Assembly (NCBI GenBank): GCA_902499925.1
Contig: GCA_902499925.1_4130.1
Length of the DNA: 64,000 nucleotides
Strand: one strand, 5' to 3'
DNA from: Escherichia coli
GTDB taxonomy: Bacteria; Pseudomonadota; Gammaproteobacteria; Enterobacterales; Enterobacteriaceae
The position numbers and the translations under genes were made by a program. This document shows, one piece after another, positions 6,398 through 54,660 of the stretch. Numbering within the stretch: the first letter of the stretch is position 1; the number at the start of each line of letters is the position of its first letter. Under the pieces are notes generated by a model that was not told the DNA's origin, searched no databases, and saw nothing but the letters and a program-made list of their open reading frames with translations.

Positions 6398-6456
6398 TGT
6401 GATATAACCCTTTACAATTAATATAAAGAGATTATATCACAAAGATTTGGAGGGTG

Positions 6457-7047
6457 TCAAGAGTTCTCACGAAGTTCTACCATTTCTTTCCATACTAAAT
6501 GGTAATCTTCTAAGTCCAGATAGAAGTCTTCATTTAAGTGCTCATATAAGTACTTGTACATGAATAGTACACCTAAATTGTATTCAGTAGTAAGCAATGA
6601 TTGTTGGAAGTAGTTTTCTTCATTTAGTTCTATATCCATGAACTCAAATCTACCTAGACCTTTTAATGTACGTATCTCAACATGTGAAGTATCTGTTTTA
6701 CTGAAGCACATGAATCCACCTCTAAATTCGGGATCATATTCACATTCATACTGTCCACTGTTATTATAGAAATCTCTATTACCATCCTTATCTTTTGGCT
6801 TAACAACTGATACGTGAAGGTCGTCATCTTTGTACATTGTACGTTCTGGCGTTTTCACACATTTTAACTTATTTTCTTTAATGTACTTGATAATATCAAT
6901 TATATCTTGTGCAGTACTGATTGCTGCCTCGAACGTATCCAACTTAAGATGATTGTATAGAGTTCCCTCGTTCTTTATTTTATCTAACATACTAACCTCA
7001 TAGTTCATACATCTTTGATTTGAATTGCATTGGTCCACCAACTTCAC
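6457..7047 (-). CDS. Family A paralog, function unknown
   Basis: Motif 'EENYFQQSLL'. Confidence 0.75.
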   Translation of the reverse strand: MKLVDQCNSNQRCMNYEVSMLDKIKNEGTLYNHLKLDTFEAAISTAQDIIDIIKYIKENKLKCVKTPERTMYKDDDLHVSVVKPKDKDGNRDFYNNSGQYECEYDPEFRGGFMCFSKTDTSHVEIRTLKGLGRFEFMDIELNEENYFQQSLLTTEYNLGVLFMYKYLYEHLNEDFYLDLEDYHLVWKEMVELRENS

Positions 7048-8293: not shown

Positions 8294-8880
8294 AGTAGAT
8301 CCTTATACATTGCATGTATTCTTACAATGTCTCTGTAATAACTCATATCTTCACGATTATCATTAAAAACAGTAACACTGAATACAGCAGTACTAATTGA
8401 ACTATCAACAATGTACTCTTTTAATTTATTATAAAGATATATGCACTTAGTAGATGTATCATCCCACATAAGACTATTTTGAAAGATGTTTTCTTCTGTG
8501 TTAGGATATAAGTACTGATCAATCTTGTACCCCAATGAACTATCACAGTTTTTATATACAGAAATAGATGGGACATTCATATTGCACATAATACTAATAA
8601 CATTATCATTGTATGTAGAAATTAAACTGGTACTGGATGCTACACTTTCATCATAATTCAGTACTGAAATTCTTGCATTATCTGTGCAGTACAGATGTTT
8701 CATTCCACCTCTCATAGCCATAGTAAGAAATTTATCAGTGAACCATATTCCTTTTGTTTTCAGTATAGTTTCATGCATAAGATAAGTTTCAATGAAGATT
8801 TTTACACGCTCAAATGCCAAGTCAAGTTCATTGTACATAACGGATATCCTTCTGTAAAGAATCAATATATTCTTTAACAA
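8284..8880 (-). CDS. Family A paralog, function unknown
   Basis: Motif 'EENIFQNSLMWD'. Confidence 0.75.
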   Translation of the reverse strand: MLKNILILYRRISVMYNELDLAFERVKIFIETYLMHETILKTKGIWFTDKFLTMAMRGGMKHLYCTDNARISVLNYDESVASSTSLISTYNDNVISIMCNMNVPSISVYKNCDSSLGYKIDQYLYPNTEENIFQNSLMWDDTSTKCIYLYNKLKEYIVDSSISTAVFSVTVFNDNREDMSYYRDIVRIHAMYKDLLCY

Positions 8881-9019
8881 CTTGTTCCTGATACTGTGTA
8901 CCCAAATACATCAGTACTTTTAATTCTTTGAATTCAGTACCATATGAGTCGATTTGCATCATTCTTTTAGAGTATATACCGAATAGTTTATCAATATCAT
9001 CTTGGTTTATTATTTTCAT
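8828..9019 (-). CDS. Family B paralog embedded in family A array
   Basis: 63-aa ORF with 'LGTQYQEQ' motif. Confidence 0.55.
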   Translation of the reverse strand: MKIINQDDIDKLFGIYSKRMMQIDSYGTEFKELKVLMYLGTQYQEQVVKEYIDSLQKDIRYVQ

Positions 9020-9224
9020 AAACCCTCTTCTGGATTAGTTCCTGTAAGTGCTGAATATAACCCTTCATTGCAACATCCTGTTTGTTAGAGCCAACGAAGA
9101 ACAATAGCTTAAAGTCATGGTAATCCATTTTTGGTTTAGTAGTGAACCATATGTCCCACACTGCACTCACAGTTCTCATGTATTCAATTCGATTAAATGT
9201 TTTTGAATACTTCATCGAAATCAA
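8997..9224 (-). CDS. Family B-like small protein
   Basis: 75-aa ORF with 'VGSNKQD...YIQHLQELI' resembling family B C-terminus. Confidence 0.5.
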   Translation of the reverse strand: MISMKYSKTFNRIEYMRTVSAVWDIWFTTKPKMDYHDFKLLFFVGSNKQDVAMKGYIQHLQELIQKRVYENNKPR

Positions 9225-17902: not shown

Positions 17903-18483
17903 TTTAATGCCCCTGTAATCATACTGAAATTTGAACGATACATATCGTACACTGTACTTTCTTTCTTGTGCACAATGAAATCATAAAGATCGACGAATGC
18001 AGGAATAATAATCTTGAATGATTTATTCTTGTACGTCCCAAACTCAACGGTGCTCAATTTTGCAACGAGCATAGCAACAAAGATTTCTTCTGGACTATGC
18101 AATGTACTGTACTGAAAATAATCCTCTGCACTTATTTCACCCATTGCACTAATATCTTGTACTTGTAATGAAATTTTAAGATAATAATAAGAAAAATCAT
18201 TCTCTGATTTGTTTTGTATTTTGTATTGGTCTATGGGTACATCTCTCATGAACCATAAACGGTCCTGACCATAAAAAGGAATGATTGAATTTGGGGAACC
18301 CAAAAAAACTTCTTCTCTATCAATATCCTTTAACTCAATTTGCATACTGGATGAATTGGCAATAATTAATTCATTAAAAATGTAATGAACCTTGTGTACC
18401 ATCTCTTGTACTGAATTGAAATCATCTGGTATTTTAAAATTTTCCATAGGTATCTCCTTAAAAATGATTACACATTGTACCAT
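17899..18483 (-). CDS. Family A paralog, function unknown
   Basis: Motif 'AEDYFQYSTLH'. Confidence 0.75.
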   Translation of the reverse strand: MVQCVIIFKEIPMENFKIPDDFNSVQEMVHKVHYIFNELIIANSSSMQIELKDIDREEVFLGSPNSIIPFYGQDRLWFMRDVPIDQYKIQNKSENDFSYYYLKISLQVQDISAMGEISAEDYFQYSTLHSPEEIFVAMLVAKLSTVEFGTYKNKSFKIIIPAFVDLYDFIVHKKESTVYDMYRSNFSMITGALK

Positions 18484-18519
18484 GCATTTGTACTGGTGTC
18501 AAACAAAAAAGCCCATATC

Positions 18520-21396: not shown

Positions 21397-21786
21397 CTAA
21401 TCGTGCCATTTAATAGGATACTCCGTTCCATTTATTGTATAAGATATAATCCATCCGTAATGAATAGGACTATTCTTTTCTCCTTTAGGAATAAAATATA
21501 AAGATGTACTAGGATTATAACTGAATAAATCTTTATTGTCAAATGTAAAATGAGATAACGTTATCTTCCTTGAACTTGGACTAATAACATTCTTAACACC
21601 AAACACGGTATCTTGATATTTCTCTGAAAATTCAAACAATGCATCTGTAATTAAATCATTGAATTCTATACATAATGGTTTAAAAGAACCATCATTATCT
21701 TTGAATTCCTTATATAAAGAGCTTCTTGTATTCAAAAGAAATATTACTTTTTTAAGATCCTGAACTATTTCTGGATTCATATTCAT
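21397..21786 (-). CDS. Hypothetical protein
   Basis: 129-aa ORF. Confidence 0.5.
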   Translation of the reverse strand: MNMNPEIVQDLKKVIFLLNTRSSLYKEFKDNDGSFKPLCIEFNDLITDALFEFSEKYQDTVFGVKNVISPSSRKITLSHFTFDNKDLFSYNPSTSLYFIPKGEKNSPIHYGWIISYTINGTEYPIKWHD

Positions 21787-22003
21787 TTATCTCATCCTGT
21801 AACTTAAGCATCAAAATTTGCATATTAATTTTTTGTACAAGGTGATTGAGAAATTTCTGTACTGTATCTTCTTGTTCTTTTGACCCAAGATAAAATAACA
21901 TATTAAATTCCGATAACCTCAGAGCAAAATCGTCATCTCCCCCTTGTAAACAAAAATCCCTGTACTTTGATGCATACAAATAACGGTTTATTTTTTTGTA
22001 CAT
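21752..22003 (-). CDS. Family B paralog
   Basis: Motif 'LGSKEQED'. Confidence 0.55.
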   Translation of the reverse strand: MYKKINRYLYASKYRDFCLQGGDDDFALRLSEFNMLFYLGSKEQEDTVQKFLNHLVQKINMQILMLKLQDEINEYESRNSSGS

Positions 22004-22352: not shown

Positions 22353-22676
22353 TTATATGTGGAATTCACATACGTGTTGAACAAAATTCTTTGGAAGATG
22401 ACAATGTGTAATCATCTGCTTTTGTACTTCCTTCATATCTTCGAATGTAAATCCTAAAGAATCATCATGTACTAACAAGTACTGAAACTCTTCTTCTTCA
22501 GAGATAGAACATAAATTCGGTACTGAAATTGTTTTTGTTTTTCTTGCACCTAATTTCCAATGAAAAGAATTATTGCATTTTCTGTACTCAAATATCTTCA
22601 ACCCAGAACCTGTATTAAAATCAGCTACTACAATGTAACATGAATTCTTACGTACAATACAATTGAACTTACGCAT
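22353..22676 (-). CDS. Family A paralog (short form)
   Basis: Motif 'EEEEFQYLLVHD'; start moved to MRKFNCIV (track ORF to 22703). Confidence 0.7.
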   Translation of the reverse strand: MRKFNCIVRKNSCYIVVADFNTGSGLKIFEYRKCNNSFHWKLGARKTKTISVPNLCSISEEEEFQYLLVHDDSLGFTFEDMKEVQKQMITHCHLPKNFVQHVCEFHI

Positions 22677-22921
22677 TATCTCCACCTCTCTCCGTCTGTA
22701 CAAGAGTACTGGTACGTTGTCGTTAGGGTAGGAACCATGTTTGTAATGGGCATATTGTTAACAATAACCGTAACAGGCATAAGAATCGTCTCTTCTCTAC
22801 TCTGTCCTGTCCTTGTGCAATTCATCTTCTGCATTTCATCTGAATCCATGAAATACAATACAAATGGTGCAATCCCAAGAACAATACACAAGACGATAAG
22901 GAAATTTAAAAAATTTAACAT
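22676..22921 (-). CDS. Putative small membrane protein
   Basis: N-terminal ~24 strongly hydrophobic residues (LNFLNFLIVLCIVLGIAPFVLYF). Confidence 0.4.
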   Translation of the reverse strand: MLNFLNFLIVLCIVLGIAPFVLYFMDSDEMQKMNCTRTGQSREETILMPVTVIVNNMPITNMVPTLTTTYQYSCTDGERWR

Positions 22922-22990
22922 AATTTTTACCCTCTATTTGAACGCTCAAAAAGTACAGGTACTATAGCACTAAAGAAAAGTACTGTCAAG

Positions 22991-23356
22991 CTAGTATTGC
23001 ACTGTTCTAATGAAAGTACCTGAACTCATGGATTTAAGCTTATGAACCTCTTCCTGTATACCCTTGAGCAACTCTAAAGGCATTGGTACATCATGTACTA
23101 AGCTGTACTGAAAGTATTCTTCTTCAGATAAAGTACTAACATCTGGGACGCCAATTTTAGTTAGATAATCTTGATGTGTTGACCAATAAATTATATCTTC
23201 AGTACAATTGTACTCCCCATATACTGAACAATATTGATGAATATCTTTCCTGTACCCTTGAGCAATAAAGAACTTATCTACGGCATTAATAGAACTCACT
23301 TCGATTGTTACAGTACTTGAGCTTGTTTTTCCTTTATTATGCATATTAATCCCCAA
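22991..23356 (-). CDS. Family A paralog (short form)
   Basis: Motif 'EEEYFQYSLVHD'. Confidence 0.75.
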   Translation of the reverse strand: MGINMHNKGKTSSSTVTIEVSSINAVDKFFIAQGYRKDIHQYCSVYGEYNCTEDIIYWSTHQDYLTKIGVPDVSTLSEEEYFQYSLVHDVPMPLELLKGIQEEVHKLKSMSSGTFIRTVQY

Positions 23357-23532
23357 ATTAGATATCGAACACTATCAGCTTGATAGTTAGTTCCTACTGT
23401 GTGTTTTAATATTAACTCATCTTTCAGTACTGAACATTCTGCATTAGATATAGGAAGTGAATTAATTCTTTGAATTTCTGGTCGCAACATACCGCGAATC
23501 TTGCGATAATCTTCGTATGATAATCTTTTCAT
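23308..23532 (-). CDS. Family B paralog
   Basis: Motif 'VGTNYQAD'. Confidence 0.6.
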   Translation of the reverse strand: MKRLSYEDYRKIRGMLRPEIQRINSLPISNAECSVLKDELILKHTVGTNYQADSVRYLIWGLICIIKEKQAQVL

Positions 23533-23535
23533 GGT

Positions 23536-23880
23536 TTAATACTCAATAATGTGTTCTTCATAATCACCATTAGGCTCCTGTTTAGCTTCTTTCATTAGTA
23601 CTATCATCTTATGTACTAATGGCATAGGAAACTCTAAATCCCATACTAATGATTCCTGAAAGTATTCCTCTGGTGATAAAGTACTTAAATCTTTAATATC
23701 AACGTGCTTGTATATTTTATTTTCGTAATTAACAAATGATATATATAAATCATTAATATAAGAATCATACGTAATTGTGAATGGCTTACCCTTGTAGTCC
23801 ATTACATCTCTACATAGACTACTTTTGATATATATATGTTCATAGGATTTATATACCTTGAGTTGTATATTAGTTTTCAT
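23536..23880 (-). CDS. Family A paralog (short form)
   Basis: Motif 'PEEYFQESLVWD'. Confidence 0.75.
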   Translation of the reverse strand: MKTNIQLKVYKSYEHIYIKSSLCRDVMDYKGKPFTITYDSYINDLYISFVNYENKIYKHVDIKDLSTLSPEEYFQESLVWDLEFPMPLVHKMIVLMKEAKQEPNGDYEEHIIEY

Positions 23881-24121
23881 ATTTCTCTTTATTAGCTTGT
23901 TTGGTTTTATAGTGAATTAAATCTATTAATGTAATCAAGTACAACTTCAAAAAGTACTCTTGATGGTTCGTACCTAATGATACAAAGAACTTATGCTCAT
24001 AAATCAAAACCTGTTTCACTTCAAAGGGACACTTAATCCTCTGTATAGGTTTAAGTAAATGATAGTACTTATTAAATCTATGATACATTTCTAGTTCTGT
24101 CAGTACTTTCATATTAAACAA
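23870..24121 (-). CDS. Family B paralog (LGTNYQE-motif small protein)
   Basis: Motif 'LGTNHQEY'. Confidence 0.65.
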   Translation of the reverse strand: MFNMKVLTELEMYHRFNKYYHLLKPIQRIKCPFEVKQVLIYEHKFFVSLGTNHQEYFLKLYLITLIDLIHYKTKQANKEKYEN

Positions 24122-24335
24122 TCACTCCATTAGCTGTAGCATCACGTAAAGCTCTCAAATACTTCTGTACTGCTTGCTCTTGCTTATTTGTACCTAAAAG
24201 TATATACATCCATAATTCACTGTAATGTACATCTTGTGTATAAGGGTTGTTGTAACTTTTTGATAATATAGCATCAAATTCAGATGCATGAACCCTTGTG
24301 AACTTAAGAATATCTTGTTGTGTTATGATTCTCAT
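24114..24335 (-). CDS. Family B paralog
   Basis: Motif 'LGTNKQEQ'. Confidence 0.7.
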   Translation of the reverse strand: MRIITQQDILKFTRVHASEFDAILSKSYNNPYTQDVHYSELWMYILLGTNKQEQAVQKYLRALRDATANGVIV

Positions 24336-24547
24336 ATCTTTTCCTGTACTATCTGTATAAGAATCCCTATGTGTGAATTAACAGTTCTCTCTTGATGCTG
24401 TGTTCCTAAGAGTGTCAGTACTATCATCTCTGAACGCAAAAGATTTTTCTGAAGTTCACTTATATCAGTCCTCATATCAAGATTCAGAAATTCTTGACTA
24501 TTTTTTCTGAATAGTGCCAAGTACTCTTGATTTGATATTTCCTTCAT
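24332..24547 (-). CDS. Family B paralog
   Basis: Motif 'LGTQHQER'. Confidence 0.7.
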   Translation of the reverse strand: MKEISNQEYLALFRKNSQEFLNLDMRTDISELQKNLLRSEMIVLTLLGTQHQERTVNSHIGILIQIVQEKI

Positions 24548-24774
24548 AGTTTATCCCTGATGCCATTTAAAAGTGCTCTAATATGCTCCTGTACGAATTT
24601 GTACTGACTGTCTGTTCCTAGAGTGAGTAGCAATCTTAAATCTGAACTTTTGATGTGATATTCTAAATCATTATTTGATTCTTGCATCAGTTTCTTAAAG
24701 GATGAGAAGTTTGCAGCCATTAGTTCAATGTATTCTGCTGTTCCTAGTGGTTTGTGTATTGGCTGTTTGTGCAT
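24544..24774 (-). CDS. Family B paralog
   Basis: Motif 'LGTDSQYK'. Confidence 0.7.
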   Translation of the reverse strand: MHKQPIHKPLGTAEYIELMAANFSSFKKLMQESNNDLEYHIKSSDLRLLLTLGTDSQYKFVQEHIRALLNGIRDKL

Positions 24775-24986
24775 TTTAATTTTATTACCCTTTTGAGTGT
24801 ATTAATGTAATTATACACATTGGCTTCTTGATAGTTAGTTCCCAGTGTAGCTTGAACATAGATTTCATTTAACTTAATAATTTTATCAGTATCTGGTAGT
24901 TTTGATGTGTTAATGGCAAATAACTTCAAAAACAGTCCATTTAAGATTGTTAGGTATTCTTCGTCGGTAATGATTCGCATTTGCAT
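24744..24986 (-). CDS. Family B paralog
   Basis: Motif 'LGTNYQEA'. Confidence 0.7.
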   Translation of the reverse strand: MQMRIITDEEYLTILNGLFLKLFAINTSKLPDTDKIIKLNEIYVQATLGTNYQEANVYNYINTLKRVIKLKCTNSQYTNH

Positions 24987-25192
24987 TGGATAAACCTTTT
25001 TAGTTCTTTGATGTAATCATTAATATTGCATTCTTGATAGTTAGTCCCTAGGGTAGCTTGAACATAGATTTCACTCATTAGAATATTTTTTTCTTCATCA
25101 GGTAAATCTGTGGTCTTTGCTATATACAATTTTAGAATTAAACTACTTAATAGTTCGTGGTATTCACTTGGTGAAAGGATTTTCATTTGCAT
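24950..25192 (-). CDS. Family B paralog
   Basis: Motif 'LGTNYQEC'; near-duplicate of 24744..24986. Confidence 0.7.
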   Translation of the reverse strand: MQMKILSPSEYHELLSSLILKLYIAKTTDLPDEEKNILMSEIYVQATLGTNYQECNINDYIKELKRFIQCKCESLPTKNT

Positions 25193-25398
25193 GTTCTCAG
25201 TACAGATTCTTTAAGTTCATCGATGTAGTCCTCAACGAATTGCTCTTGGAAGTTAGTTCCAATATATAAAAGAACTCTTAAATCTGCTCTAAGTAACTCT
25301 TTTTCATCATCATCTATATCAGACAATGTTATGTTTAAGAATTTACTTGTATTAAAGATTAACAATTCTGTTTGTTCACTGTGGCTTAAAATTTTCAT
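25183..25398 (-). CDS. Family B paralog
   Basis: Motif 'IGTNFQEQ'. Confidence 0.7.
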   Translation of the reverse strand: MKILSHSEQTELLIFNTSKFLNITLSDIDDDEKELLRADLRVLLYIGTNFQEQFVEDYIDELKESVLRTCK

Positions 25399-25606
25399 AA
25401 TCTCTTTTTGCTTTCCTCGACAGTAGGTACAAATACGATTCTTCGTATTGTGCTTGGAAGTTTGTGTTTAAGAGTCGAAACAACTTCTGTTCTTCTAGAA
25501 CGAGTTGCTTATCTTCATAACAACGGTAGCGTATCAACTTTTTGTATTCGATGTTGATTACATCCATTACTATAAGCCCATGTTCATCATCTGTCAAGTG
25601 CTTCAT
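25376..25606 (-). CDS. Family B paralog
   Basis: Motif 'LNTNFQAQ'. Confidence 0.65.
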   Translation of the reverse strand: MKHLTDDEHGLIVMDVINIEYKKLIRYRCYEDKQLVLEEQKLFRLLNTNFQAQYEESYLYLLSRKAKRDYENFKPQ

Positions 25607-25845
25607 GCTTTTTTTCTTTTCCTGATGTGTTTAGTTAAAAGGTATATTAGTTTTCTGATGTATTCTTCCTGATAGTTTGTTCCTAATAGTGCAAGAAGTT
25701 TTGCTTCAACTAAAGCTAATTGACGTTCTTCAAATGTGTGTTCCAGTATGTACTTTGGGTTTGATTTTTTAGAAATTGCACTATTAGTTTTCATTACAAT
25801 CTTATGATATTCATTAACTGTTAGGATTTTTAAATTCTTGAGCAT
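25603..25845 (-). CDS. Family B paralog
   Basis: Motif 'LGTNYQEE'. Confidence 0.7.
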   Translation of the reverse strand: MLKNLKILTVNEYHKIVMKTNSAISKKSNPKYILEHTFEERQLALVEAKLLALLGTNYQEEYIRKLIYLLTKHIRKRKKA

Positions 25846-26071
25846 GTACCTTTTCCTTTATAGAGAATTTAAGATATCGAAGCATACTTTCAATGTAATA
25901 CTCTTGTCTGTCAGTTCCAAGAAAGTACAGGAGTTGAATGTATAAAACTTCTGCACTCCTTTCGGCATGTGACTTGTTTGTGTCGTTTGGAAGTTGATTT
26001 GTAAGTTTTCTGGATTTAATTAATCGTTCTTTTAACTCATCGTCTGTTAAGTATTTCATTTGCATTTGCAT
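25814..26071 (-). CDS. Family B paralog
   Basis: Motif 'LGTDRQEY'. Confidence 0.7.
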   Translation of the reverse strand: MQMQMKYLTDDELKERLIKSRKLTNQLPNDTNKSHAERSAEVLYIQLLYFLGTDRQEYYIESMLRYLKFSIKEKVHAQEFKNPNS

Positions 26072-26297
26072 TTACTTTTTCCTTAATAGTGATTTTAAGA
26101 TATCTAATCATACGTGCAACATATTCCTCTTGTCTATCAGTTCCCAGAAGATATGGTAGTGATTGGAATAATACTTCTGCACTCCTTTCTGCTGGGGTTT
26201 GGTTTAGGTCAATTGGACGTTTATTGGTATATCTCTTGGCACGAACTAATCTCTCGACGTATTCATTATAGGTTAAGTATATCATTTCATTTTGCAT
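26037..26297 (-). CDS. Family B paralog
   Basis: Motif 'LGTDRQEE'; near-duplicate of 25814..26071. Confidence 0.7.
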   Translation of the reverse strand: MQNEMIYLTYNEYVERLVRAKRYTNKRPIDLNQTPAERSAEVLFQSLPYLLGTDRQEEYVARMIRYLKITIKEKVNANANEILNRR

Positions 26298-26533
26298 TTA
26301 ATGTTTCTTACGTAAATTGTCTGGATTAAACAATCAATCCAAGTTTGAATATATTGGTTTTGATACTGTGTGCCTAAGAGACTCTGCATTTTAAACTCTG
26401 CTTCAAGTTCATATCTCTTTTCTATAGAAAAGCTCAAATGACCATATTCTTTATCGTATCTTCTCAGTGCTTCCCCAATTCTATCAAATCTTTCTGCTAA
26501 TCTGATGTTATTCACAATATTCATCGCATTCAT
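26282..26533 (-). CDS. Family B paralog
   Basis: Motif 'LGTQYQNQ'. Confidence 0.7.
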   Translation of the reverse strand: MNAMNIVNNIRLAERFDRIGEALRRYDKEYGHLSFSIEKRYELEAEFKMQSLLGTQYQNQYIQTWIDCLIQTIYVRNIKCKMK

Positions 26534-26808
26534 CGATCAGTACACCTCAGTGGTTGGGTCATTTGATGAAAGTACAGCTTACCTCTGATTTCCAGTAGTA
26601 ACTCCGCGATTAAGCGATTTACTTCTGTATCTTGATAGTTTGTTCCTAAGAATACACCCATCTTTAACTCACGCATCATAATCATTTTCTTACTGTGTTG
26701 AATTTCTGGGTTGTGATAGATTGTATTACGTTTGTGCGTAATTTTTGTCATACGCTCGGTATATTCATCTTTACTTAAATTAATCATTTTTATTCTCCAA
26801 AGCATCAC
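26530..26808 (-). CDS. Family B paralog (start probably at internal MINLSKDEY)
   Basis: Motif 'LGTNYQDT'. Confidence 0.65.
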   Translation of the reverse strand: MMLWRIKMINLSKDEYTERMTKITHKRNTIYHNPEIQHSKKMIMMRELKMGVFLGTNYQDTEVNRLIAELLLEIRGKLYFHQMTQPLRCTDR

Positions 26809-27019
26809 ATTTATTTTCGATACAAATCATTAGTTCTCTAAGATAGTTTTTTATCTTACCTTCCTGATGGTTCGTCCCCAGGAAGTTGCATAACTCTGCT
26901 TCTATTATTTTGATTCTTCTGGTGTCAGGTTTCAATTTTTTGTTATTGAAGATTTGAATCCTTATATCCCTTGATGCATTTAAACGTTTTTGATATTCAT
27001 GGAAAGATAAATTAATCAT
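26780..27019 (-). CDS. Family B paralog
   Basis: Motif 'LGTNHQEG'. Confidence 0.7.
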   Translation of the reverse strand: MINLSFHEYQKRLNASRDIRIQIFNNKKLKPDTRRIKIIEAELCNFLGTNHQEGKIKNYLRELMICIENKCDALENKND

Positions 27020-27234
27020 TTACTTTGTATCTCTCTCTTGAGGGCATCAATTAACAACAGTACAGCATTCTCTTGATAGTTTGTTCCTAAGACTGAAAGC
27101 ATCTTAATCTCATTTACTACAATCAACTTCTTTGAGCGTTCAATAATGTTACTATTATAAACGGCGTTACGTGCTGGATAAGTTTTTGCAAGACGAACAT
27201 AATATTCATCTTTACTTAAATTAATCATTTGCAT
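27016..27234 (-). CDS. Family B paralog
   Basis: Motif 'LGTNYQEN'. Confidence 0.7.
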   Translation of the reverse strand: MQMINLSKDEYYVRLAKTYPARNAVYNSNIIERSKKLIVVNEIKMLSVLGTNYQENAVLLLIDALKREIQSK

Positions 27235-27443
27235 TTACTTTGGATCTCCTTGACTAATGCATCAACCCACATGTCTATATACATTTGTTGATAGTTTGTC
27301 CCTATGAGTGCCCCTGCATAGAGTTCAGCTACCATTGCATGTTTTAGGTTGGCAGGGATGCTCTTATCAGATTGAATCTTTACTCTTCTGTTGGCACATG
27401 TTTTCAGAAGCTTAACATATTCGTAACCTATTAATTTTCTCAT
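27225..27443 (-). CDS. Family B paralog
   Basis: Motif 'IGTNYQQM'. Confidence 0.7.
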   Translation of the reverse strand: MRKLIGYEYVKLLKTCANRRVKIQSDKSIPANLKHAMVAELYAGALIGTNYQQMYIDMWVDALVKEIQSKCK

Positions 27444-27655
27444 TCTTTTGATATCACCTTGTTACGTAAGGCACTTAACAATACGTCAGTGTAGATGTTT
27501 TGATAGTTTGTTCCTACGAATACACCCAACTTCATTTCAGCTATTATAACACATTTGTCCTCTTGTGCAATAGACTTGTCTAAAGAAATACTAACAACTT
27601 TCCTTCTTATAGCTTGTAACCTCCAATGATACTGATACTCATTTAGGGTTATCAT
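27440..27655 (-). CDS. Family B paralog
   Basis: Motif 'VGTNYQNI'. Confidence 0.7.
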   Translation of the reverse strand: MITLNEYQYHWRLQAIRRKVVSISLDKSIAQEDKCVIIAEMKLGVFVGTNYQNIYTDVLLSALRNKVISKE

Positions 27656-27890
27656 TCTCTCGCCTCCATTTCTCGGTTCTAATGTGTTGACATTGTGCTT
27701 CGATGAACATATCTATTGATTTGGCAATTGCTTTTTTATCTGTGCCTGTCATCAGTACAAGCATCTCGGCCTCACAGTGAAGTAAACGCATGATATCATA
27801 GGGTAATATTCCAGATACCGTGTCATAGTGTTTCTGTGCCAGTGTCTGTAATAGTTTACAATACATTTTGTGATTTAGTCTGTGTCGCAT
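27639..27890 (-). CDS. Family B-like paralog (divergent)
   Basis: Divergent motif 'TGTDKKAI'; same size and position in array. Confidence 0.55.
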   Translation of the reverse strand: MRHRLNHKMYCKLLQTLAQKHYDTVSGILPYDIMRLLHCEAEMLVLMTGTDKKAIAKSIDMFIEAQCQHIRTEKWRRENDNPK

Positions 27891-28147
27891 TGTTTATTCC
27901 ATTCTTTTTTGGCCTTGATGGTTTTATATTGGATTTGGTTTCTTAATGCTGATAAGTATCGTTGAATGAACAGATCTTGATAGTTTGTTCCAATGAATTT
28001 CATCAGATAAAGTTCACCGTTGATAACATCCACTTCAGGTGCACCATATAAGGCATTGTTTTTTCTAAGGGTATGGATTAAAGAGAATAGGGCAGTTTGA
28101 TACTCAACTCCTGATAAAGTCTTCATGTTTTGTGAGCCAATAATCAT
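27875..28147 (-). CDS. Family B paralog
   Basis: Motif 'IGTNYQDL'. Confidence 0.7.
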   Translation of the reverse strand: MIIGSQNMKTLSGVEYQTALFSLIHTLRKNNALYGAPEVDVINGELYLMKFIGTNYQDLFIQRYLSALRNQIQYKTIKAKKEWNKQCDTD

Positions 28148-28361
28148 CTAGTTTATCCTGTATAACATTCATTAATTGTTCGACATATTCTGTGCAAAAC
28201 TTATCTTGATATTGAGTCCCCATAAAGTACAACAACCATAGCTCATTAACTTTAGCTCGCATTTGGTTCCATGTAAGGCTGGGGTCATCGTAGACTATCC
28301 TTGCTATAGGGGTTAGTTTACGGACTATAGTTTCATATTCATCTAGTGTTAAGTGTTTCAT
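28104..28361 (-). CDS. Family B paralog
   Basis: Motif 'MGTQYQDK'. Confidence 0.7.
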   Translation of the reverse strand: MKHLTLDEYETIVRKLTPIARIVYDDPSLTWNQMRAKVNELWLLYFMGTQYQDKFCTEYVEQLMNVIQDKLDDYWLTKHEDFIRS

Positions 28362-28576
28362 TTACATTTGTCCCTTATTAGATCAGTGAGGGCAACTATG
28401 TGTGCAACAACATACTCTTCCTGAAAGTTCGTCCCCAGTACAGCCATCATGCGTATATCGGTGGTGTTTATCCTGTGTTCCCTTACACATAAACCTTCTG
28501 TGTGAGGAAGTGTAAAATATTTGTTTATTGCAGCAACGATAATTTTATTCTTCTCGGAGTTACTTAAATGTTTCAT
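28358..28576 (-). CDS. Family B paralog
   Basis: Motif 'LGTNFQEE'. Confidence 0.7.
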   Translation of the reverse strand: MKHLSNSEKNKIIVAAINKYFTLPHTEGLCVREHRINTTDIRMMAVLGTNFQEEYVVAHIVALTDLIRDKCK

Positions 28577-28785
28577 AGTTTGCTCTTAATGTATTTCTGG
28601 AGTGCAATTATATACTCATTCAAGAAATGCTCCTGATAGTCTGTGCCGAGGAATGCACCCAATAGTATATCATTTTCCAATACTAATGCTAAGTTTAAAT
28701 CATCAGTCTCTTCATATACTATGAGAATTTCAAGTTGTCTGGCAGCGACGCGTTCGGTATATAGATTTGAGTTAATGCTATTCAT
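28573..28785 (-). CDS. Family B paralog
   Basis: Motif 'LGTDYQEH'. Confidence 0.7.
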   Translation of the reverse strand: MNSINSNLYTERVAARQLEILIVYEETDDLNLALVLENDILLGAFLGTDYQEHFLNEYIIALQKYIKSKL

Positions 28786-28994
28786 AGTTTACTCTTAATG
28801 TAATTCTGGAGTGCAATTAAGTATTCCCCTACATAATACACCTGAAAGTCTGTATCCAAAAATGCACCCATAAGTAAATCTTTTTCTAATACCCTTGATA
28901 AGTTAAGGTCTGCATTTGAAAGGTATATAAGTAAGATTTCACCCTGTGCGGAATTGAAACGTTTCTTATATTCTTCTGGTGTTAAAAAAATCAT
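28782..28994 (-). CDS. Family B paralog
   Basis: Motif 'LDTDFQVY'; near-duplicate of 28573..28785. Confidence 0.65.
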   Translation of the reverse strand: MIFLTPEEYKKRFNSAQGEILLIYLSNADLNLSRVLEKDLLMGAFLDTDFQVYYVGEYLIALQNYIKSKL

Positions 28995-29200
28995 AGTTTC
29001 CTCTTAATATCTTCTATTAAAAATCGAATCCAATCGTCAACATACTCTTCCTGATGGTTTGTGTTCAGTACAGCCAACATGCGGATCTCTGCTCTTGCAA
29101 CTTCAATTGCAGTTTTAGGAAGGTCTTTTCTGATATCCAACATTAAGTCCATGTATCTCAAGATAAGACCGTATGATTGGGTTCGTGTTATAGTTTTCAT
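28991..29200 (-). CDS. Family B paralog
   Basis: Motif 'LNTNHQEE'. Confidence 0.65.
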   Translation of the reverse strand: MKTITRTQSYGLILRYMDLMLDIRKDLPKTAIEVARAEIRMLAVLNTNHQEEYVDDWIRFLIEDIKRKL

Positions 29201-29397
29201 TGTTTCCTCGTGGATAATATTTCATTTTTCAATGCATCCATATATTGAATCACCCATCTTCCCTGATAGCTTGTTCCCAATGTAATCAAAAGGTATAACT
29301 CAATTCGTTCTAAGTTTGTGTCTGTGTTATAAATCTTTACCATGTTTTTACGTAACAGTTCTTGATAATCTTCTTTATTTAAAATACGCATTTTCAT
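29197..29397 (-). CDS. Family B paralog
   Basis: Motif 'LGTSYQGR'. Confidence 0.65.
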   Translation of the reverse strand: MKMRILNKEDYQELLRKNMVKIYNTDTNLERIELYLLITLGTSYQGRWVIQYMDALKNEILSTRKQ

Positions 29398-29591
29398 AGT
29401 CTACCTTTTATGTCCCTTCGTAATTCTTGTAAGTATAGTTCGATATACTTTTCTTGATAGTTAGTTCCTATGAAAAGTTTCATAACCAATTCACGCTTAT
29501 ATGCAATACCACGGATATGTGACATATGTAGGATATATGCCATGTTGGATATGAGTGTGTGGTTGTGCTCTTCTTGAGTTAAAATACGCAT
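29394..29591 (-). CDS. Family B paralog, first gene of array
   Basis: Motif 'IGTNYQEK'; start moved to MRILTQEE preceded by GGAG (track ORF to 29621). Confidence 0.7.
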   Translation of the reverse strand: MRILTQEEHNHTLISNMAYILHMSHIRGIAYKRELVMKLFIGTNYQEKYIELYLQELRRDIKGRL

Positions 29592-29619
29592 AGGGACTCC
29601 ATTAAAAATAATATCAATC

Positions 29620-29650
29620 ATATAATATACAATTCATATAAAAAGTCAAT
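29620..29650 (-). promoter_or_regulatory. Candidate sigma70-like promoter reading into family B array
   Basis: Minus-strand TTGACT, ~17-nt spacer, TATTAT/ATTATA just upstream of gene start 29591; approximate. Confidence 0.35.
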
Positions 29651-29840
29651 AACATTTTATTAGTAATACCCCTTTATCGAAGTCGCTAAGGTTACCCGCC
29701 CTTTAGCCCCCTACGCATTTTGCCATAGTCCAATCCCTTTTTATTCATAAAAGTCAAGGGATTACCTATGCATTTTTTTAACGCTGAAATTTAAAAATGC
29801 CTTGACTTTTTTATGATTCAGTACTAAATCCTTTTACGCA

Positions 29841-50683: not shown

Positions 50684-50890
50684 TTACTTCCTATATATAA
50701 GCATTAACATATAGTAGTACTGATTATGCTGTACATTCTCTTTAATATTATAAGGGTCTATAGCAATCTCGGTACATCTGTTAAATGCATATCTATTAAA
50801 TGCCAGTACTATTATAGATCTAATCCATGCTTGGTCAGTCGGTGGTAGTTTACTTATATAGTACTCTTTATAATTTTTTATGTTCTGCAT
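50684..50890 (-). CDS. Family C paralog (small protein, N-terminal KEYY...KL motif)
   Basis: MQNIKNYKEYYISKL...YYYMLMLIYRK. Confidence 0.65.
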   Translation of the reverse strand: MQNIKNYKEYYISKLPPTDQAWIRSIIVLAFNRYAFNRCTEIAIDPYNIKENVQHNQYYYMLMLIYRK

Positions 50891-50901
50891 AGTATACCTT
50901 A

Positions 50902-51093
50902 TTATTTCAAAGTACCATATAGTACTCTTAATAGGAAGTAGTACGTATTAGAAATATCATTACTAGTTAAAACAATCTTTGTACACATATTAAATTCGTA
51001 TTGAGTCATTGCCAGGGGGATTAAATTGTTAACCCATGCTTGTTCGTTTTCTTTGAGTTTACTTATATAGAAATCTTTATGTTCTTTATTCAT
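50902..51093 (-). CDS. Family C paralog
   Basis: MNKEHKDFYISKL... Confidence 0.65.
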   Translation of the reverse strand: MNKEHKDFYISKLKENEQAWVNNLIPLAMTQYEFNMCTKIVLTSNDISNTYYFLLRVLYGTLK

Positions 51094-51295
51094 ATAGGAA
51101 TAGTATACCTATGATGCCGGAGTACATATTAGTACTGTTATTATTGGCGTTTGCGTTTAAAGTCATTTGAATACAATTATTGTAGCATACTCTGCCGAAA
51201 TATGTATCAGTACTTAAAGGTGCTGTAGTCCTTAGAAACATTTGTTCTGTGGGGCTGAGGTGTTTGGAATAGAATTCTTTATGTTCTTTATTCAT
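51086..51295 (-). CDS. Family C paralog
   Basis: MNKEHKEFYSKHLSPTEQMFL... Confidence 0.65.
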   Translation of the reverse strand: MNKEHKEFYSKHLSPTEQMFLRTTAPLSTDTYFGRVCYNNCIQMTLNANANNNSTNMYSGIIGILFLYE

Positions 51296-51300
51296 ATTAG

Positions 51301-51486
51301 TTAGTGTCTGTATATAAGTAATAGTAAGAATACGTACTGCACCTGTTCATCTTTAGTATTGAGTACTGTACGTATTGCGTCATGGAACAAGAATATAGTA
51401 CTTGGGTCATTAGAATTTAAGGGGTTTACGGGGACGGCGTGTTTGTAGTTCCCTTTAACAAATTGTATATAGTATTCTCTATGCAT
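51301..51486 (-). CDS. Family C paralog
   Basis: MHREYYIQFV...VFLLLLIYRH. Confidence 0.6.
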   Translation of the reverse strand: MHREYYIQFVKGNYKHAVPVNPLNSNDPSTIFLFHDAIRTVLNTKDEQVQYVFLLLLIYRH

Positions 51487-51487
51487 A

Positions 51488-51676
51488 TCAGTACCTATAT
51501 ATTAGGGCGAGAATGTAGTACAGTTTATATGTATTATAATCTGGGTTGATAGCACATAGTGTGTGGTAGTGGAATTGTTTGGTATTTTTCTTATCCTTGA
51601 TATCTATTGGGTTTAGTGGTATAAGCATTTGGGAGTTTAGTTCCAGATGGTTTAAGTAGAATTCTTTGTTATTCAT
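51488..51676 (-). CDS. Family C paralog
   Basis: MNNKEFYLNHL...YYILALIYRY. Confidence 0.65.
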   Translation of the reverse strand: MNNKEFYLNHLELNSQMLIPLNPIDIKDKKNTKQFHYHTLCAINPDYNTYKLYYILALIYRY

Positions 51677-51875
51677 AGAAGAATATTAGTCCCATTACGC
51701 CTGAGTATTGAATATTTTTGTTATTGTTTTCTAAAGCTTCTAGAGTAATACGTATACAATTATTAAAGCAATCTCTGGCGTGTGGTGTATCTAAACTTAA
51801 AGGTGATACACTCCTTAGAAACATTTGTTCTGATGCACTGAGGTGTTTGGTGTAAAATTCTTTCTGTTCGTTCAT
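51669..51875 (-). CDS. Family C paralog
   Basis: MNEQKEFYTKHLSASEQMFL...; close paralog of 51086..51295. Confidence 0.65.
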   Translation of the reverse strand: MNEQKEFYTKHLSASEQMFLRSVSPLSLDTPHARDCFNNCIRITLEALENNNKNIQYSGVMGLIFFYE

Positions 51876-51885
51876 ATTGGCCTCT

Positions 51886-52074
51886 TTAGTACACGAAAGC
51901 TAGGTACAGTGTATGATACAGTACTCGATGATAGCTATCAAAATCTAGTATACATGCTTTAGTGCACATAGTAAAGTACACTTTATCGTTTTGAGCATTG
52001 ATACCGCGAGGTTTATCTAATAGATTAGTACTGAGGTACATTGGGAAATATTTTGTGTAGTATTCTTTATGCAT
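51886..52074 (-). CDS. Family C paralog
   Basis: Start at MHKEYYTKYF (track ORF to 52119). Confidence 0.6.
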   Translation of the reverse strand: MHKEYYTKYFPMYLSTNLLDKPRGINAQNDKVYFTMCTKACILDFDSYHRVLYHTLYLAFVY

Positions 52075-52075
52075 A

Positions 52076-52258
52076 TTAGTACCTGAATATAAGTAGGATA
52101 GTGTTATATAATTGGTCATAACTACTACTATTTTCTATACTTCGTTCTATGCAGTTATTGAATCCCAGTACTGCCAAATCGTTATCCAGGGGGACTTTGT
52201 ATCTGGCGTAGTGTTCAAAAATGCTGGGGAGAAATTGTGTGTAGTATTCTTTGTGCAT
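52076..52258 (-). CDS. Family C paralog
   Basis: MHKEYYTQFL... Confidence 0.65.
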   Translation of the reverse strand: MHKEYYTQFLPSIFEHYARYKVPLDNDLAVLGFNNCIERSIENSSSYDQLYNTILLIFRY

Positions 52259-52259
52259 A

Positions 52260-52451
52260 TTAGTACTTATATATTAGTAAAAGGATGTGATACAGTACTC
52301 GATTATAGTCTTCAATATATATCGAGGATTTAGTGCACTGAATGAAGTAGTCTTTTTCGTAGTTTTTTTCTATACCCAATGGTTCTGTTGGTAGAAGGTG
52401 TTGGAGATACATTGGGAGTTTCTCTATGTAGTATTCTTTGTGGTTATTCAT
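52260..52451 (-). CDS. Family C paralog
   Basis: MNNHKEYYIEKL... Confidence 0.65.
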   Translation of the reverse strand: MNNHKEYYIEKLPMYLQHLLPTEPLGIEKNYEKDYFIQCTKSSIYIEDYNRVLYHILLLIYKY

Positions 52452-52459
52452 ATTATGTG

Positions 52460-52633
52460 TTATTTCGTGAAAACAAGGGTTAGTACTGCATAGTACAAGT
52501 CATACGTATCTTTAGGGTTAATAGCACCTTTAATACATTCTTTCATTACTTCATTATAGATAATTTTAGTACTGAATGTATTGGATGTTACTATATCGGA
52601 ATTAAGGTACGAGAGGTAGAATTCTTTATACAT
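52460..52633 (-). CDS. Family C paralog
   Basis: Start at MYKEFYLSYL (track ORF to 52696). Confidence 0.6.
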   Translation of the reverse strand: MYKEFYLSYLNSDIVTSNTFSTKIIYNEVMKECIKGAINPKDTYDLYYAVLTLVFTK

Positions 52634-53285
52634 AGTTTGAAATATACGTAATGAGGTGATGAAATTTCTTATCAGTACTGATAAGTTCCTGTACATGTTT
52701 TGTTAGTTTGTACGCGTTTTTATAGAGTCCTGGATTATCGATTACAGTACTGTACATGAATTCTTCTTCCTCGGATAATTCTTTGTGTTCTAGTTCTTTG
52801 AGGAATTGCAGTACTGTATCAGTTTCGTTAGTACGTTGCTTTTGGAAGAAGTGCATGTTATCGTGTATTTTTTCTGAACCCATGCAGTACATATCGCCGA
52901 TTTGGAATTGTGCAGTACTGATATCATGGGTGCTATTACAATTCCCGAAGAAGTATACATTCCCGAAAGATAGAATTATAGTGCACGGGATATTATCCAT
53001 GTGTATATAGATAGATGCATTCTTTAGTGCTTTTGTGCTGGTATTAGTACTCAATACTTTTAAATCAGTATTATAGATATTAATAAAAGCAAGAGCTATA
53101 TTATTTTTCTTCAAGTACGATTTGAGGTTCTTAGATACGAGAACATTTCTGGATTTTTTCTTTTTATTTCGTTTCTTTAGTACACACGGGTCGTAAGTAT
53201 ATGCTGGTGTAAAAGATTCTGCTTGAATACTGTTGAGGTATTTAAAGTGCTTAAGGTATTGTTTGCTGTGTGCATTAAGTTTCAT
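52626..53285 (-). CDS. Family A-like protein embedded in family C array
   Basis: 219-aa ORF with 'SEEEEFMYSTVIDNPG'. Confidence 0.65.
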   Translation of the reverse strand: MKLNAHSKQYLKHFKYLNSIQAESFTPAYTYDPCVLKKRNKKKKSRNVLVSKNLKSYLKKNNIALAFINIYNTDLKVLSTNTSTKALKNASIYIHMDNIPCTIILSFGNVYFFGNCNSTHDISTAQFQIGDMYCMGSEKIHDNMHFFQKQRTNETDTVLQFLKELEHKELSEEEEFMYSTVIDNPGLYKNAYKLTKHVQELISTDKKFHHLITYISNYV

Positions 53286-53294
53286 TTGGTTTCC

Positions 53295-53474
53295 TTTATA
53301 CAGATGCGAGAGCGAGGATTTCCCTGAAGGGATTATCTTTTGTTAGTGCGTGATGAATGCAGCTATTGAGATTAATATTTTTAGTACTGTTAGTTGCCAG
53401 GTTGTAGTACTTCACGAAGGTGTCGTACATGAAACGGTCTTTAATGCTTATGTGTTCTATATAGTATTCTTGCA
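53295..53474 (-). CDS. Family C paralog (~59 aa), not in ORF track
   Basis: Translation MQEYYIEHISIKDRFMYDTFVKYYNLATN...; coordinates approximate. Confidence 0.45.
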
Positions 53475-53483
53475 TATTATTCC

Positions 53484-53672
53484 TTACATAGAGATGAGTT
53501 TCAGTACATCAATATACATATAACGTTCAGATGACAGTACACGGGTAGTGATAATCTCAATCGATATATTTTTAATTCCATGTGCAGATGATTGATGGTG
53601 CTGAATAAATGAGTTGTGCATACTTTGTTCTATGTGGTTTAGTTTATTGAAGTAGTACTCAAAAGTGTTCAT
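53484..53672 (-). CDS. Family C paralog
   Basis: MNTFEYYFNKL...YIDVLKLISM. Confidence 0.65.
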   Translation of the reverse strand: MNTFEYYFNKLNHIEQSMHNSFIQHHQSSAHGIKNISIEIITTRVLSSERYMYIDVLKLISM

Positions 53673-53679
53673 GTCTACC

Positions 53680-53859
53680 TTAGATTGAGATTAGTTTAAG
53701 TACTTCTCTGTACGTGTACTTTTCGTTTTGTGCTTCTACTGTACATGATAGTAGGTATCGTTTTTTATCTCTTTTGTTCCCGACTGTGTAGTACCTTTGG
53801 AATTTATTATAGTTGTATCTATCTTTGTGCTGGAGGTTATAGATATAGAATTCTTGCAT
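53680..53859 (-). CDS. Family C paralog (~59 aa), not in ORF track
   Basis: Translation MQEFYIYNLQHKDRYNYNKFQRYY...YTYREVLKLISI; coordinates approximate. Confidence 0.45.
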   Translation of the reverse strand: MQEFYIYNLQHKDRYNYNKFQRYYTVGNKRDKKRYLLSCTVEAQNEKYTYREVLKLISI

Positions 53860-53867
53860 AGAGTACC

Positions 53868-54053
53868 TTAGATTGCTATCAGTTTGAGTACTTCAATATA
53901 TGTGCGGTACTCTGCTTTAATTAAATTTGTACACACTGTAAGGGAATTTCTTTGTATAAGTTTATTGCCGCTTTTATACGCATTTCTCCACACATAGAGA
54001 TGAGATCTTTCAGGCATAGATAGTTTATTTGTATAGTACTCAAATGTATTCAT
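53868..54053 (-). CDS. Family C paralog
   Basis: MNTFEYYTNKL...YIEVLKLIAI. Confidence 0.65.
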   Translation of the reverse strand: MNTFEYYTNKLSMPERSHLYVWRNAYKSGNKLIQRNSLTVCTNLIKAEYRTYIEVLKLIAI

Positions 54054-54061
54054 ATATTACC

Positions 54062-54265
54062 TCAAATAGAGATTAGTTTAAGTACTTCTCTGTATGTGTA
54101 CTTTTCGTTTTGTGCATCTCTTGTGCTTGTATATAGGTATCCTCGACGATATTTGTTGCTCCCGTTCTTGTAGTTGAATTCGAACTTATTGTAGATGAAT
54201 CTATCGCCAGGCTGTAATTTACTTAAGTACAATTCAATGCTCATAGTATTCTCTTTACATATCAA
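54062..54265 (-). CDS. Family C paralog
   Basis: ...MSIELYLSKL...YTYREVLKLISI. Confidence 0.65.
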   Translation of the reverse strand: MICKENTMSIELYLSKLQPGDRFIYNKFEFNYKNGSNKYRRGYLYTSTRDAQNEKYTYREVLKLISI

Positions 54266-54649: not shown

Positions 54650-54660
54650 ATAGTACTCTT

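Follow-up and report, generated by a model that had tools for sequence, protein, structure and literature searches.

Introduction

In African swine fever virus (ASFV), the MGF110, MGF360, and MGF505 families, and in poxviruses the terminal ankyrin and Bcl-2-like families, consist of diverged tandem paralogs that lie near the genome termini and vary in copy number. The genes of these eukaryotic-virus families are monocistronic, and their role in host range or immune evasion has been demonstrated. In bacteriophages, gp37-gp60 of SPO1, located in the terminal redundancy, and the pre-early genes of T5, located in the terminal repeat, serve as early host-takeover modules. Here we describe family B, a tandem array of small paralogous genes at positions 23308-29621 (minus strand) of a 64,000-nt stretch of DNA deposited as Escherichia coli (assembly GCA_902499925.1, contig GCA_902499925.1_4130.1; "the window" hereafter means this whole stretch). 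We favor, with a probability of roughly 0.45, the reading that the array is transcribed early as a single polycistron with translational coupling, and that its products are small binding proteins, a birth-and-death set directed at host takeover or anti-defence.

Like the ASFV and poxvirus families, the array holds old, diverged tandem paralogs beside a terminus, gains and loses whole genes, and encodes non-structural accessory proteins; unlike them, it has an unrelated fold and host, appears to be translationally coupled in one polycistron, and has a function that we infer. With the modules of SPO1, T5, and PA5oct (PMC7318152) it has in common small non-structural genes at or near a long terminal repeat and sigma-70-type promoters, which in the array, too, host RNA polymerase would read. 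However, those modules are composed of mutually unrelated genes that mostly have their own promoters and lie inside the repeat, whereas the array is a single paralogous family with no internal spacers, just outside the repeat. A lineage-specific expansion of a mini-domain to ~30 copies is also found in the jumbo phage G of Bacillus, where a zinc ribbon suggested to bind DNA occurs in ~35 copies (Iyer et al., 2021; PMC7824862), but that domain is recognizable by its conserved cysteines, while the helical fold of family B is an orphan and no Cys or His is conserved in it. Finally, tandem duplication and copy-number polymorphism among close relatives recall the poxvirus "genomic accordion," i.e., K3L amplification (Elde et al., 2012, as cited in PMC13359090). 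Accordion copies are recent and near-identical and expand and collapse within passages, whereas the closest copies of the array share 65-70% of their nucleotides and the paralogs are older than the phage species carrying them.

The existence of the array was already known. A single sentence in Hua et al. (2017; mBio; PMC5646251) reads an array in phage 121Q as tandem duplication aiding genome expansion, a statement repeated in a 2026 review, "The biology of jumbo phages" (PMC13282480). Phage 121Q belongs to the same genus as the source of the window, and its array is almost certainly the same locus, either family B or the adjacent family A described below. In that sentence the family is not defined, and nothing is said of its fold, its place in the genome, its operon structure, selection on it, or what it does; genome papers on phages CBB, phAPEC6, Sharanji, and fEgEco12 added nothing on family B. 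As far as we searched the literature, the definition of the family, its predicted fold, its position at the repeat boundary, its operon anatomy, its age, and its selection regime are undescribed.

Results and discussion

Family B in an Asteriusvirus genome

The array region matched 36 phage records at 83-96% identity, all of them from PBECO4/121Q-group jumbo phages (genus Asteriusvirus; ~350-385 kb) that infect Escherichia or Salmonella, and judged by these matches the window is part of a PBECO4/121Q-type jumbo coliphage genome. In the relatives, every gene under the match carries only the label "hypothetical protein." An earlier note on this DNA, made from the letters alone, had described a tandem family of ~30 mini-proteins comprising 26 consecutive open reading frames (ORFs) and scattered copies, and this description was borne out by ORF listing and motif scan. 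The minus strand between 23308 and 29621 holds 27 family B genes, numbered here B01 to B27: 26 contiguous ORFs (23870-29621) and one more (23308-23532) beyond a 114-aa family A interloper (23536-23880, minus strand) that separates B26 from B27. Three further copies are scattered in the window (8828-9019, 8997-9224, and 21752-22003, all minus strand), making 30 in total, with protein lengths of 63-92 aa.

Membership was defined with a family hidden Markov model (HMM) searched against the six-frame translation of the window, which returned exactly 30 members (E ≤ 4e-15), the next-best noise lying at E ≥ 0.24. Since an HMM built from the members themselves is a circular test, the search was repeated with each member left out, and 29 of the 30 were again recovered at E ≤ 1e-6, the exception being B09 (27639-27890; E 6.8). 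The independent profile PHROG 4148, which represents the same family and is annotated as of unknown function, matched 18 of the 20 members tested, mostly over their full length and mostly with E values of 1e-9 to 9e-26 (two matches were weak, 1e-5 and 6e-4); B09 and the scattered copy B28 (21752-22003) did not reach it. We regard B09 as a divergent or uncertain member despite its in-register position. A second profile, PHROG 28039 (53 aa), looks like a set of 5'-truncated gene calls of B03 orthologs.

The strict form of the C-terminal motif, [LIVMF]G[TS][NDQS][YFHKRS]Q, occurs 25 times in the minus-strand frames of the window and once on the plus strand, against an average of 0.34 in shuffled windows; a chance origin in AT-rich sequence, which the earlier note had named as its own refutation, did not hold. 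Family B and both of its motifs are real, far beyond chance. Column by column, the alignment upheld the N-terminal and C-terminal motifs that had been noticed by eye: G50, T51, Q54, and L65 are conserved in at least 90% of members, L6, E10, and Y11 are conserved N-terminally, and to these are added E42 together with K72 and hydrophobic positions with helical periodicity. By column statistics between paralogs, the remaining positions exceed 3 bits of entropy. Isoelectric points (pI) range from 4.4 to 10.0, and 21 of the 30 members are basic (pI above 8). No Pfam family was matched by any member, with no consistent weak signal across the 30, and profile search found no sequence relative in the PDB.

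Predicted fold

AlphaFold2 was run on B12 (27016-27234, 72 aa) with the alignment of the 30 paralogs, and the resulting model had a predicted local distance difference test score (pLDDT) of 97.3 and a predicted template modeling score (pTM) of 0.83. It places helices at residues 8-17, 19-26, 33-47, and 54-71, with a beta-bridge from residue 4 to residue 51 of the GTN motif. According to this very confident model, family B is a small, soluble, all-helical four-helix domain of ~65-75 aa. Models of members from other phages, taken from BFVD, superpose on it with template modeling scores of 0.78-0.89, and a fold search against PDB and BFVD gave no informative or significant neighbor outside family B. 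Two patterns of the form [ST]-x-x-[EQ], each with a preceding Leu, namely L6-[TS]7-x-x-E10-Y11 and L49-G50-T51-N52-Y53-Q54-E55, sit exactly at helix starts, and we infer that the two motifs are helix N-capping boxes with hydrophobic staples. As capping boxes and core hydrophobics, the motifs would specify the fold and not an active site. On the combined evidence of alignment and model, one scaffold is shared while the surfaces differ greatly between paralogs.

Two more specific assignments were considered. A helix-turn-helix, with LLGTNYQExxV as the turn, was rejected because neither the fold searches nor Pfam helix-turn-helix profiles matched. A cathepsin propeptide inhibitor (I29) was suggested by one weak PDB profile match (pro-cathepsin H, E 0.24, 38 residues) and was likewise rejected, family B having no match to Pfam Inhibitor_I29 and no fold match.

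These properties also bear on the possibility that the family comprises small nucleic-acid-binding proteins, whether regulators of transcription or translation or nucleoid-type coaters, acting on phage or host DNA or RNA. The proteins are small and all-helical, most are basic, LLGTNYQExxVxxYI superficially resembles the turn of a helix-turn-helix, and DNA binding is what Iyer et al. proposed for the phage G expansion. We consider this account improbable.

Age and turnover of the array

Several adjacent genes (24744/24950, 25814/26037, and 28573/28782) had been called near-duplicates in the earlier note and taken as signs of recent tandem duplication. They are indeed the closest pairs in the array, yet they share only 51-56% amino acid and 65-70% nucleotide identity, with a proportion of synonymous differences (pS) of 0.51-0.58; the best pair, B16/B17, is 56% identical in amino acids and 70% in nucleotides, with a pS of 0.51. 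Over all paralog pairs, median identity is 23-28% for amino acids and 45% for nucleotides, and median pS is 0.75, i.e., synonymous sites are saturated, so that the "very similar" of Hua et al. overstates the likeness of the copies. For almost all paralogs, a separate reciprocal-best ortholog stands at the corresponding place in the gene order of fEgEco12, EC.P1, PBECO4, Sharanji, a Salmonella phage, and 121Q, so that the duplications predate the split of these species. Recent duplication is thus not supported, given near-saturation in even the closest pairs and paralog-specific, syntenic orthologs.

Recent change has instead been the gain and loss of whole genes, as comparison of copy number among related phages revealed. 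fEgEco12, at ~95% identity, carries two additional genes, five array genes are missing from 121Q, and PBECO4 has extra genes and one inversion of order. Asteriusvirus loci carry 21-32 copies each, and arrays across the genus hold ~19-30; in the deeper JNE01/Turkey5 lineage there are ~19-21 members, mostly just 28-50% identical to those of the window. Ortholog identities are mosaic (B16 is 74% identical to its fEgEco12 ortholog but 100% to that of PBECO4), which points to recombination within the array.

Outside the genus, an HMM scan found ~7 weak family B members in the Klebsiella Alcyoneusvirus KP13-7. Among 1.84 billion representative proteins, profile search yielded just 96 clusters, one low-scoring representative of which lies on a contig with the KP13-7 gene order, and a search of 5.8 billion sequences returned only Asteriusvirus proteins and "E. 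coli" contigs of ~350 kb that are in fact genomes of phages. This distribution, with Alcyoneusvirus included, indicates that family B is older than Asteriusvirus and was massively expanded only there; in the databases searched, the expansion is lineage-specific and essentially confined to Asteriusvirus jumbo phages. Many members are missing from reference annotations. In PBECO4 (NC_027364, 4331-10706), ~17-19 coding sequences are annotated where the HMM finds 29 array genes, B19 orthologs are unannotated in the records of several relatives, and array genes were also missed in EC.P1 and other loci.

Selection on the array

To quantify selection, the ratio of non-synonymous to synonymous substitution rates (dN/dS) was calculated by the Nei-Gojobori method over 21-30 ortholog pairs for each of four relatives. 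Against each of them, family B gave values of 0.33-0.37, with 0.18-0.23 at family-conserved columns and 0.41-0.46, i.e., well below 1, at paralog-variable columns. The baseline, terminal-repeat genes of the same window, was 0.16-0.20, and the family A block gave 0.33-0.44; families A and B therefore evolve about twice as fast as their neighbors. The family B genes are real and under purifying selection. Since dN/dS is below 1 even at paralog-variable columns, each paralog's particular surface is itself maintained.

The elevated rate is one of the points that could be taken to mean that the array is largely dispensable filler, fixed by tandem duplication because an enlarged capsid has room for, or requires, additional DNA (the ratchet proposed by Hua et al., who cite the 121Q array as evidence for genome expansion by duplication); the variation of copy number from 19 to 30 without obvious consequence is another. 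However, filler would not be expected to show constraint at paralog-specific positions, nor to keep all 27 reading frames intact and in order across species with synonymous divergence of up to 0.4, together with a conserved promoter and ribosome-binding site, and we consider this explanation very improbable. One could also suppose that what repeats is the nucleic acid itself, as a series of binding sites or a structured transcript in DNA or RNA, and that the ORFs are incidental to AT-rich sequence; in favor of this are the regular unit of ~210-250 nt and the base composition (32-35% GC). Yet core residues are kept at a median nucleotide identity of 45% and with saturated synonymous sites, no Rfam family was matched, and the motif is confined to the coding frames of one strand. 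Together with dN/dS below 1, core-residue conservation, saturation, and motif strand effectively refute this idea.

Anatomy of the proposed operon

The 220-nt gap upstream of the array contains a sigma-70-like promoter, TTGACT-16-TATTAT (29622-29649, minus strand), which matches the consensus at 10 of 12 positions; this is a consensus match rather than a mapped transcription start. Its -35 hexamer, its spacing, and positions A2 and T6 of its -10 hexamer are conserved in eight of nine aligned relatives (fEgEco12, EC.P1, PBECO4, 121Q, Sharanji, phAPEC6, JNE01, and Turkey5), the ninth, Salmonella phage SD-15_S21, having a record that is rearranged at this site. The ATG at 29621 follows directly on the -10 hexamer, implying that the real start of the first gene is the ATG at 29591. 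A GGAG-N5-ATG/GTG arrangement at the latter is conserved, including in JNE01 and Turkey5, and g057 of fEgEco12 is annotated at the equivalent start; B01 almost certainly begins at 29591 rather than at 29621. The leader region had no Rfam match and no significant RNA structure.

Of the 25 junctions between neighboring B genes, 12-15 are 4-nt ATGA overlaps, depending on start choice, and the others overlap by 8-44 nt or leave a gap of at most 8 nt, in agreement with the overlaps of a few codons reported previously. A 4-nt core Shine-Dalgarno sequence precedes just 11 of the 27 array genes, and the combination of ATGA overlaps with scarce Shine-Dalgarno sequences is consistent with translational coupling. 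Promoter-like sites matching at least 10 of 12 positions occur in the array at 0.47 per kb, equal to background, vs. 1.83 per kb in the adjacent terminal repeat. The earlier note saw no internal promoters; one candidate site with 11 of 12 matches, TTGACA-17-TATAGT (25569-25597, minus strand), does lie inside B19. It is identical in eight phages, though within a highly conserved ORF in which TTGACA spells the Leu-Thr codon pair of the family motif. We found no convincing terminator in the array: a terminator-like hairpin at 24287-24271 is weak, and the total hairpin count is within the expectation from shuffling.

These features support the view that the array is built as one polycistronic unit. 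The proposal of one long operon driven from ~29620-29650 thus agrees with the spacer-free anatomy and the conserved upstream promoter, with the amendment that its first gene starts at 29591. Beyond 23308 the chain of overlapping genes runs on into family A, and 23308 is probably not the end of the transcription unit. The next convincing promoter, a TG-extended TTGACA-17-TATAGT (22961-22989, minus strand), lies in a 70-nt gap upstream of a gene for a predicted membrane protein (22676-22921, minus strand; 81 aa, PHROG 8826). Promoter and gene have stayed together in the divergent JNE01 and Turkey5 (L007 12456-12761; L008 14043-14337), where they are found among family B genes. The TTGACA-17-TATAGT sites inside the JNE01 and Turkey5 arrays were considered as homologues of the site in B19 and rejected, as they correspond to the membrane-protein promoter.

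Position at the terminal repeat and expression class

Direct terminal repeats have been described in fEgEco12 (20,993 bp, experimentally supported), vB_Ec-M-J (21,525 bp), and Sharanji (20,668 bp; PMC13070987, PMC11895373). Window position 50381 aligns to nucleotide 1 of fEgEco12, after which the window runs into the unique right end, and by this collinearity the direct terminal repeat would span ~29,690-50,381. The array begins ~100 bp inside the inner boundary (~29689) of the left ~21-kb repeat, i.e., just outside the repeat itself. Spanning the predicted boundary is a conserved G-rich block (29684-29740, minus strand) of the form GGGATTGGACTATG...ATGCGTrGGGGG...GGGTAACCTTAGCG, which is conserved even in JNE01 and Turkey5 and of which GGGTAACCTTAGCG is present once in the window; the block may define the terminus or take part in packaging.

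The repeat contains ~56 small genes spaced 60-250 nt apart, and its minus strand, the same strand as the array, carries 12 perfect TTGACA-16/17-TATAAT sigma-70 promoters. Annotations in the fEgEco12 repeat include a spackle-like protein, a DksA-like zinc finger, a GNAT acetyltransferase, and a Ser/Thr kinase. Read-through from these strong promoters upstream into the array is possible. No Asteriusvirus transcriptome was found in the literature searched; in the related PA5oct, a phage that relies on the RNA polymerase of its host, the genes of the terminal repeat show high transcription early on (PMC7318152). The virion proteome of phAPEC6 comprises 62 proteins, one of them of 4.7 kDa, and includes none between gp347 and gp549. 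The array of that phage corresponds to gp467c-gp489c, none of which is in the virion mass spectrometry table. Since a 4.7-kDa protein was detectable, this absence marks the family B proteins as non-structural.

Individual members and neighboring families

All 30 members lie on the minus strand and were found by the family HMM. At the upstream end of the array, B01 (29394-29591, 65 aa from the ATG at 29591, with a longer ORF reaching 29621) is joined through an ATGA overlap to B02 (29197-29397, 66 aa; HMM E 1e-17), followed by B03 (28991-29200, 69 aa; PHROG 4148 E 4e-14), B04 (28782-28994, 70 aa, motif LDTDFQ), which is 51% identical to B05 (28573-28785, 70 aa, pI 4.4), B06 (28358-28576, 72 aa), B07 (28104-28361, 85 aa; HMM E 2e-25), and B08 (27875-28147, 83-90 aa by start choice). 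The doubtful B09 has the motif TGTDKK and orthologs with 83-97% identity. Next come B10 (27440-27655, 71 aa), B11 (27225-27443, 72 aa), the modeled B12 (PHROG 4148 E 1e-22), B13 (26780-27019, 79 aa), B14 (26530-26808, 85-92 aa), B15 (26282-26533, 83 aa), and the closest pair, B16 (26037-26297, 82-86 aa) and B17 (25814-26071, 81-85 aa). B18 (25603-25845, 80 aa) has a pI of 10.0, and B19 (25376-25606, 76 aa, motif LNTNFQ), which holds the promoter-like site, is the most conserved member, with orthologs 95-99% identical. The remainder are B20 (25183-25398, 71 aa, pI 4.5), B21 (24950-25192, 78-80 aa), which is 55% identical to B22 (24744-24986, 78-80 aa), B23 (24544-24774, 76 aa), B24 (24332-24547, 71 aa), B25 (24114-24335, 73 aa), B26 (23870-24121, 80-83 aa), and, beyond the interloper, B27 (23308-23532, 74 aa), the last array member. 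The scattered members are B28 (83 aa, motif LGSKEQ; leave-one-out E 1e-6), B29 (8997-9224, 75 aa), and B30 (8828-9019, 63 aa).

Family A occupies the minus strand from ~800 to 23,900 of the window, including the interloper, with at least 37 paralogs of 100-215 aa. Its C-terminal motif is [ST]EE[EY][FY]FQxS[LT][VI] (LSPEEYFQESLVWD in the interloper), its short members fall in PHROG 13866, and we found no Pfam or PDB relative for it. AlphaFold2 predicted an alpha/beta fold with six strands and two long helices for the interloper (pLDDT 77, pTM 0.72). Further sigma-70-like promoters with 11-12 of 12 matches, mostly TG-extended, occur on the minus strand at 6431-6460, 18474-18502, 2554-2582, and 21514-21542. 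The first three lie in the few intergenic gaps of family A, and the last is inside an ORF; these sites suggest that the block is divided into several transcription units.

Family C, directly upstream of the terminal repeat (50684-55284, minus strand; g596-g613 of fEgEco12), consists of ~20 ORFs of 59-78 aa with an N-terminal xEYYxxxL motif and a C-terminal VLKLISI or LLLIYRY motif, and is interrupted by a 219-aa family-A-like ORF (52626-53285, LSEEEEFMYSTVID). Homology of family B to either family A or family C was rejected (hhalign probability 0.3% for both). On the plus strand, 55391-63870 holds seven tandem paralogs of ~360-440 aa with the N-terminus MLPFVRMFDYGN, which relatives annotate as RCC1-like "DNA condensation" or "chromosome condensation regulator" proteins; gp549 and gp551 of phAPEC6, from this group, are virion-associated.

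In some genomes, family B domains are fused to unrelated C-terminal extensions that match no known family: P0094 (269 aa; XOD30632, EC.P1 2127-2936) lies within the family A block, and P0071 (121 aa) is on an Alcyoneusvirus-like contig. Interpretation of P0094 as a "Rosetta stone" fusion of B and A was rejected, its C-terminal part matching the family A profile only at E 0.02. The two-domain read-through P0097 is probably a frameshift artefact of B18 and B19.

Such fusions, the co-directional and interdigitated arrangement of the two families, with an A member inside the B array and B28-B30 inside the A block, and translational coupling, which favors stoichiometric co-production, would all suit a reading in which B proteins act with each other or with family A, as adaptors, chaperones, or subunits of hetero-oligomeric intracellular assemblies, and not on host targets. 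However, A and B show no regular pairing and differ in copy number (at least 37 vs. 30), their profiles lack homology, the extension of P0094 is not family A, and neither family is in the virion proteome. We judge this reading to be improbable as well.

Proposed role and implications

We return to the favored reading of an early polycistron of binding proteins. Host RNA polymerase would transcribe the array early as one translationally coupled polycistron, to which read-through from the strong terminal-repeat promoters may add. The transcript would deliver ~27 mini-proteins that present different surfaces on one scaffold, each of which may bind a different host target, either a housekeeping or a defence protein, and thereby play a part in host range, takeover of the host, or anti-defence. 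Birth-and-death and recombination between co-infecting relatives would shape the evolution of the set.

Several observations weigh against this. No library searched holds a functional annotation for family B. The array promoter, with 10 of 12 matches, is weaker than those of the terminal repeat, so that the timing could be delayed-early or middle. Pooled dN/dS is below 1 at variable positions, giving no sign of the pervasive positive selection that an intense arms race might produce. Phages infecting Salmonella and E. coli carry nearly identical sets, which speaks against a simple host-range determinant. Finally, the capping-box reading is built on sequence pattern, a DSSP string, and capping rules rather than on coordinates.

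A bolder version, which we hold to be rather doubtful, is that Asteriusvirus phages maintain what would be, among bacterial viruses, the equivalent of the terminal multigene families of ASFV and poxviruses, with ~100 mini-binder types in public data and ~20-30 per genome. These would be built on an undescribed four-helix scaffold set by two N-cap boxes and made from a stoichiometric early polycistron, each neutralizing a different host defence or housekeeping protein. If this were true, the array would be a natural library of compact protein inhibitors, and families A and C would be parallel arsenals flanking the terminal repeat.

Family B occupies ~6 kb of the phage genome, and families A, B, and C together ~35 kb. 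None of the three has a known function or fold relative, yet all are kept intact under selection across Asteriusvirus, a genus used in phage-therapy studies. In practical terms, reference annotations of these phages miss many members, and PHROG 28039 apparently represents truncated calls. If the family B proteins are host- or defence-directed binders, these dozens of small inhibitors would serve as probes for defence and housekeeping targets in E. coli, and the array would be a tractable model of multigene-family evolution in bacterial viruses.

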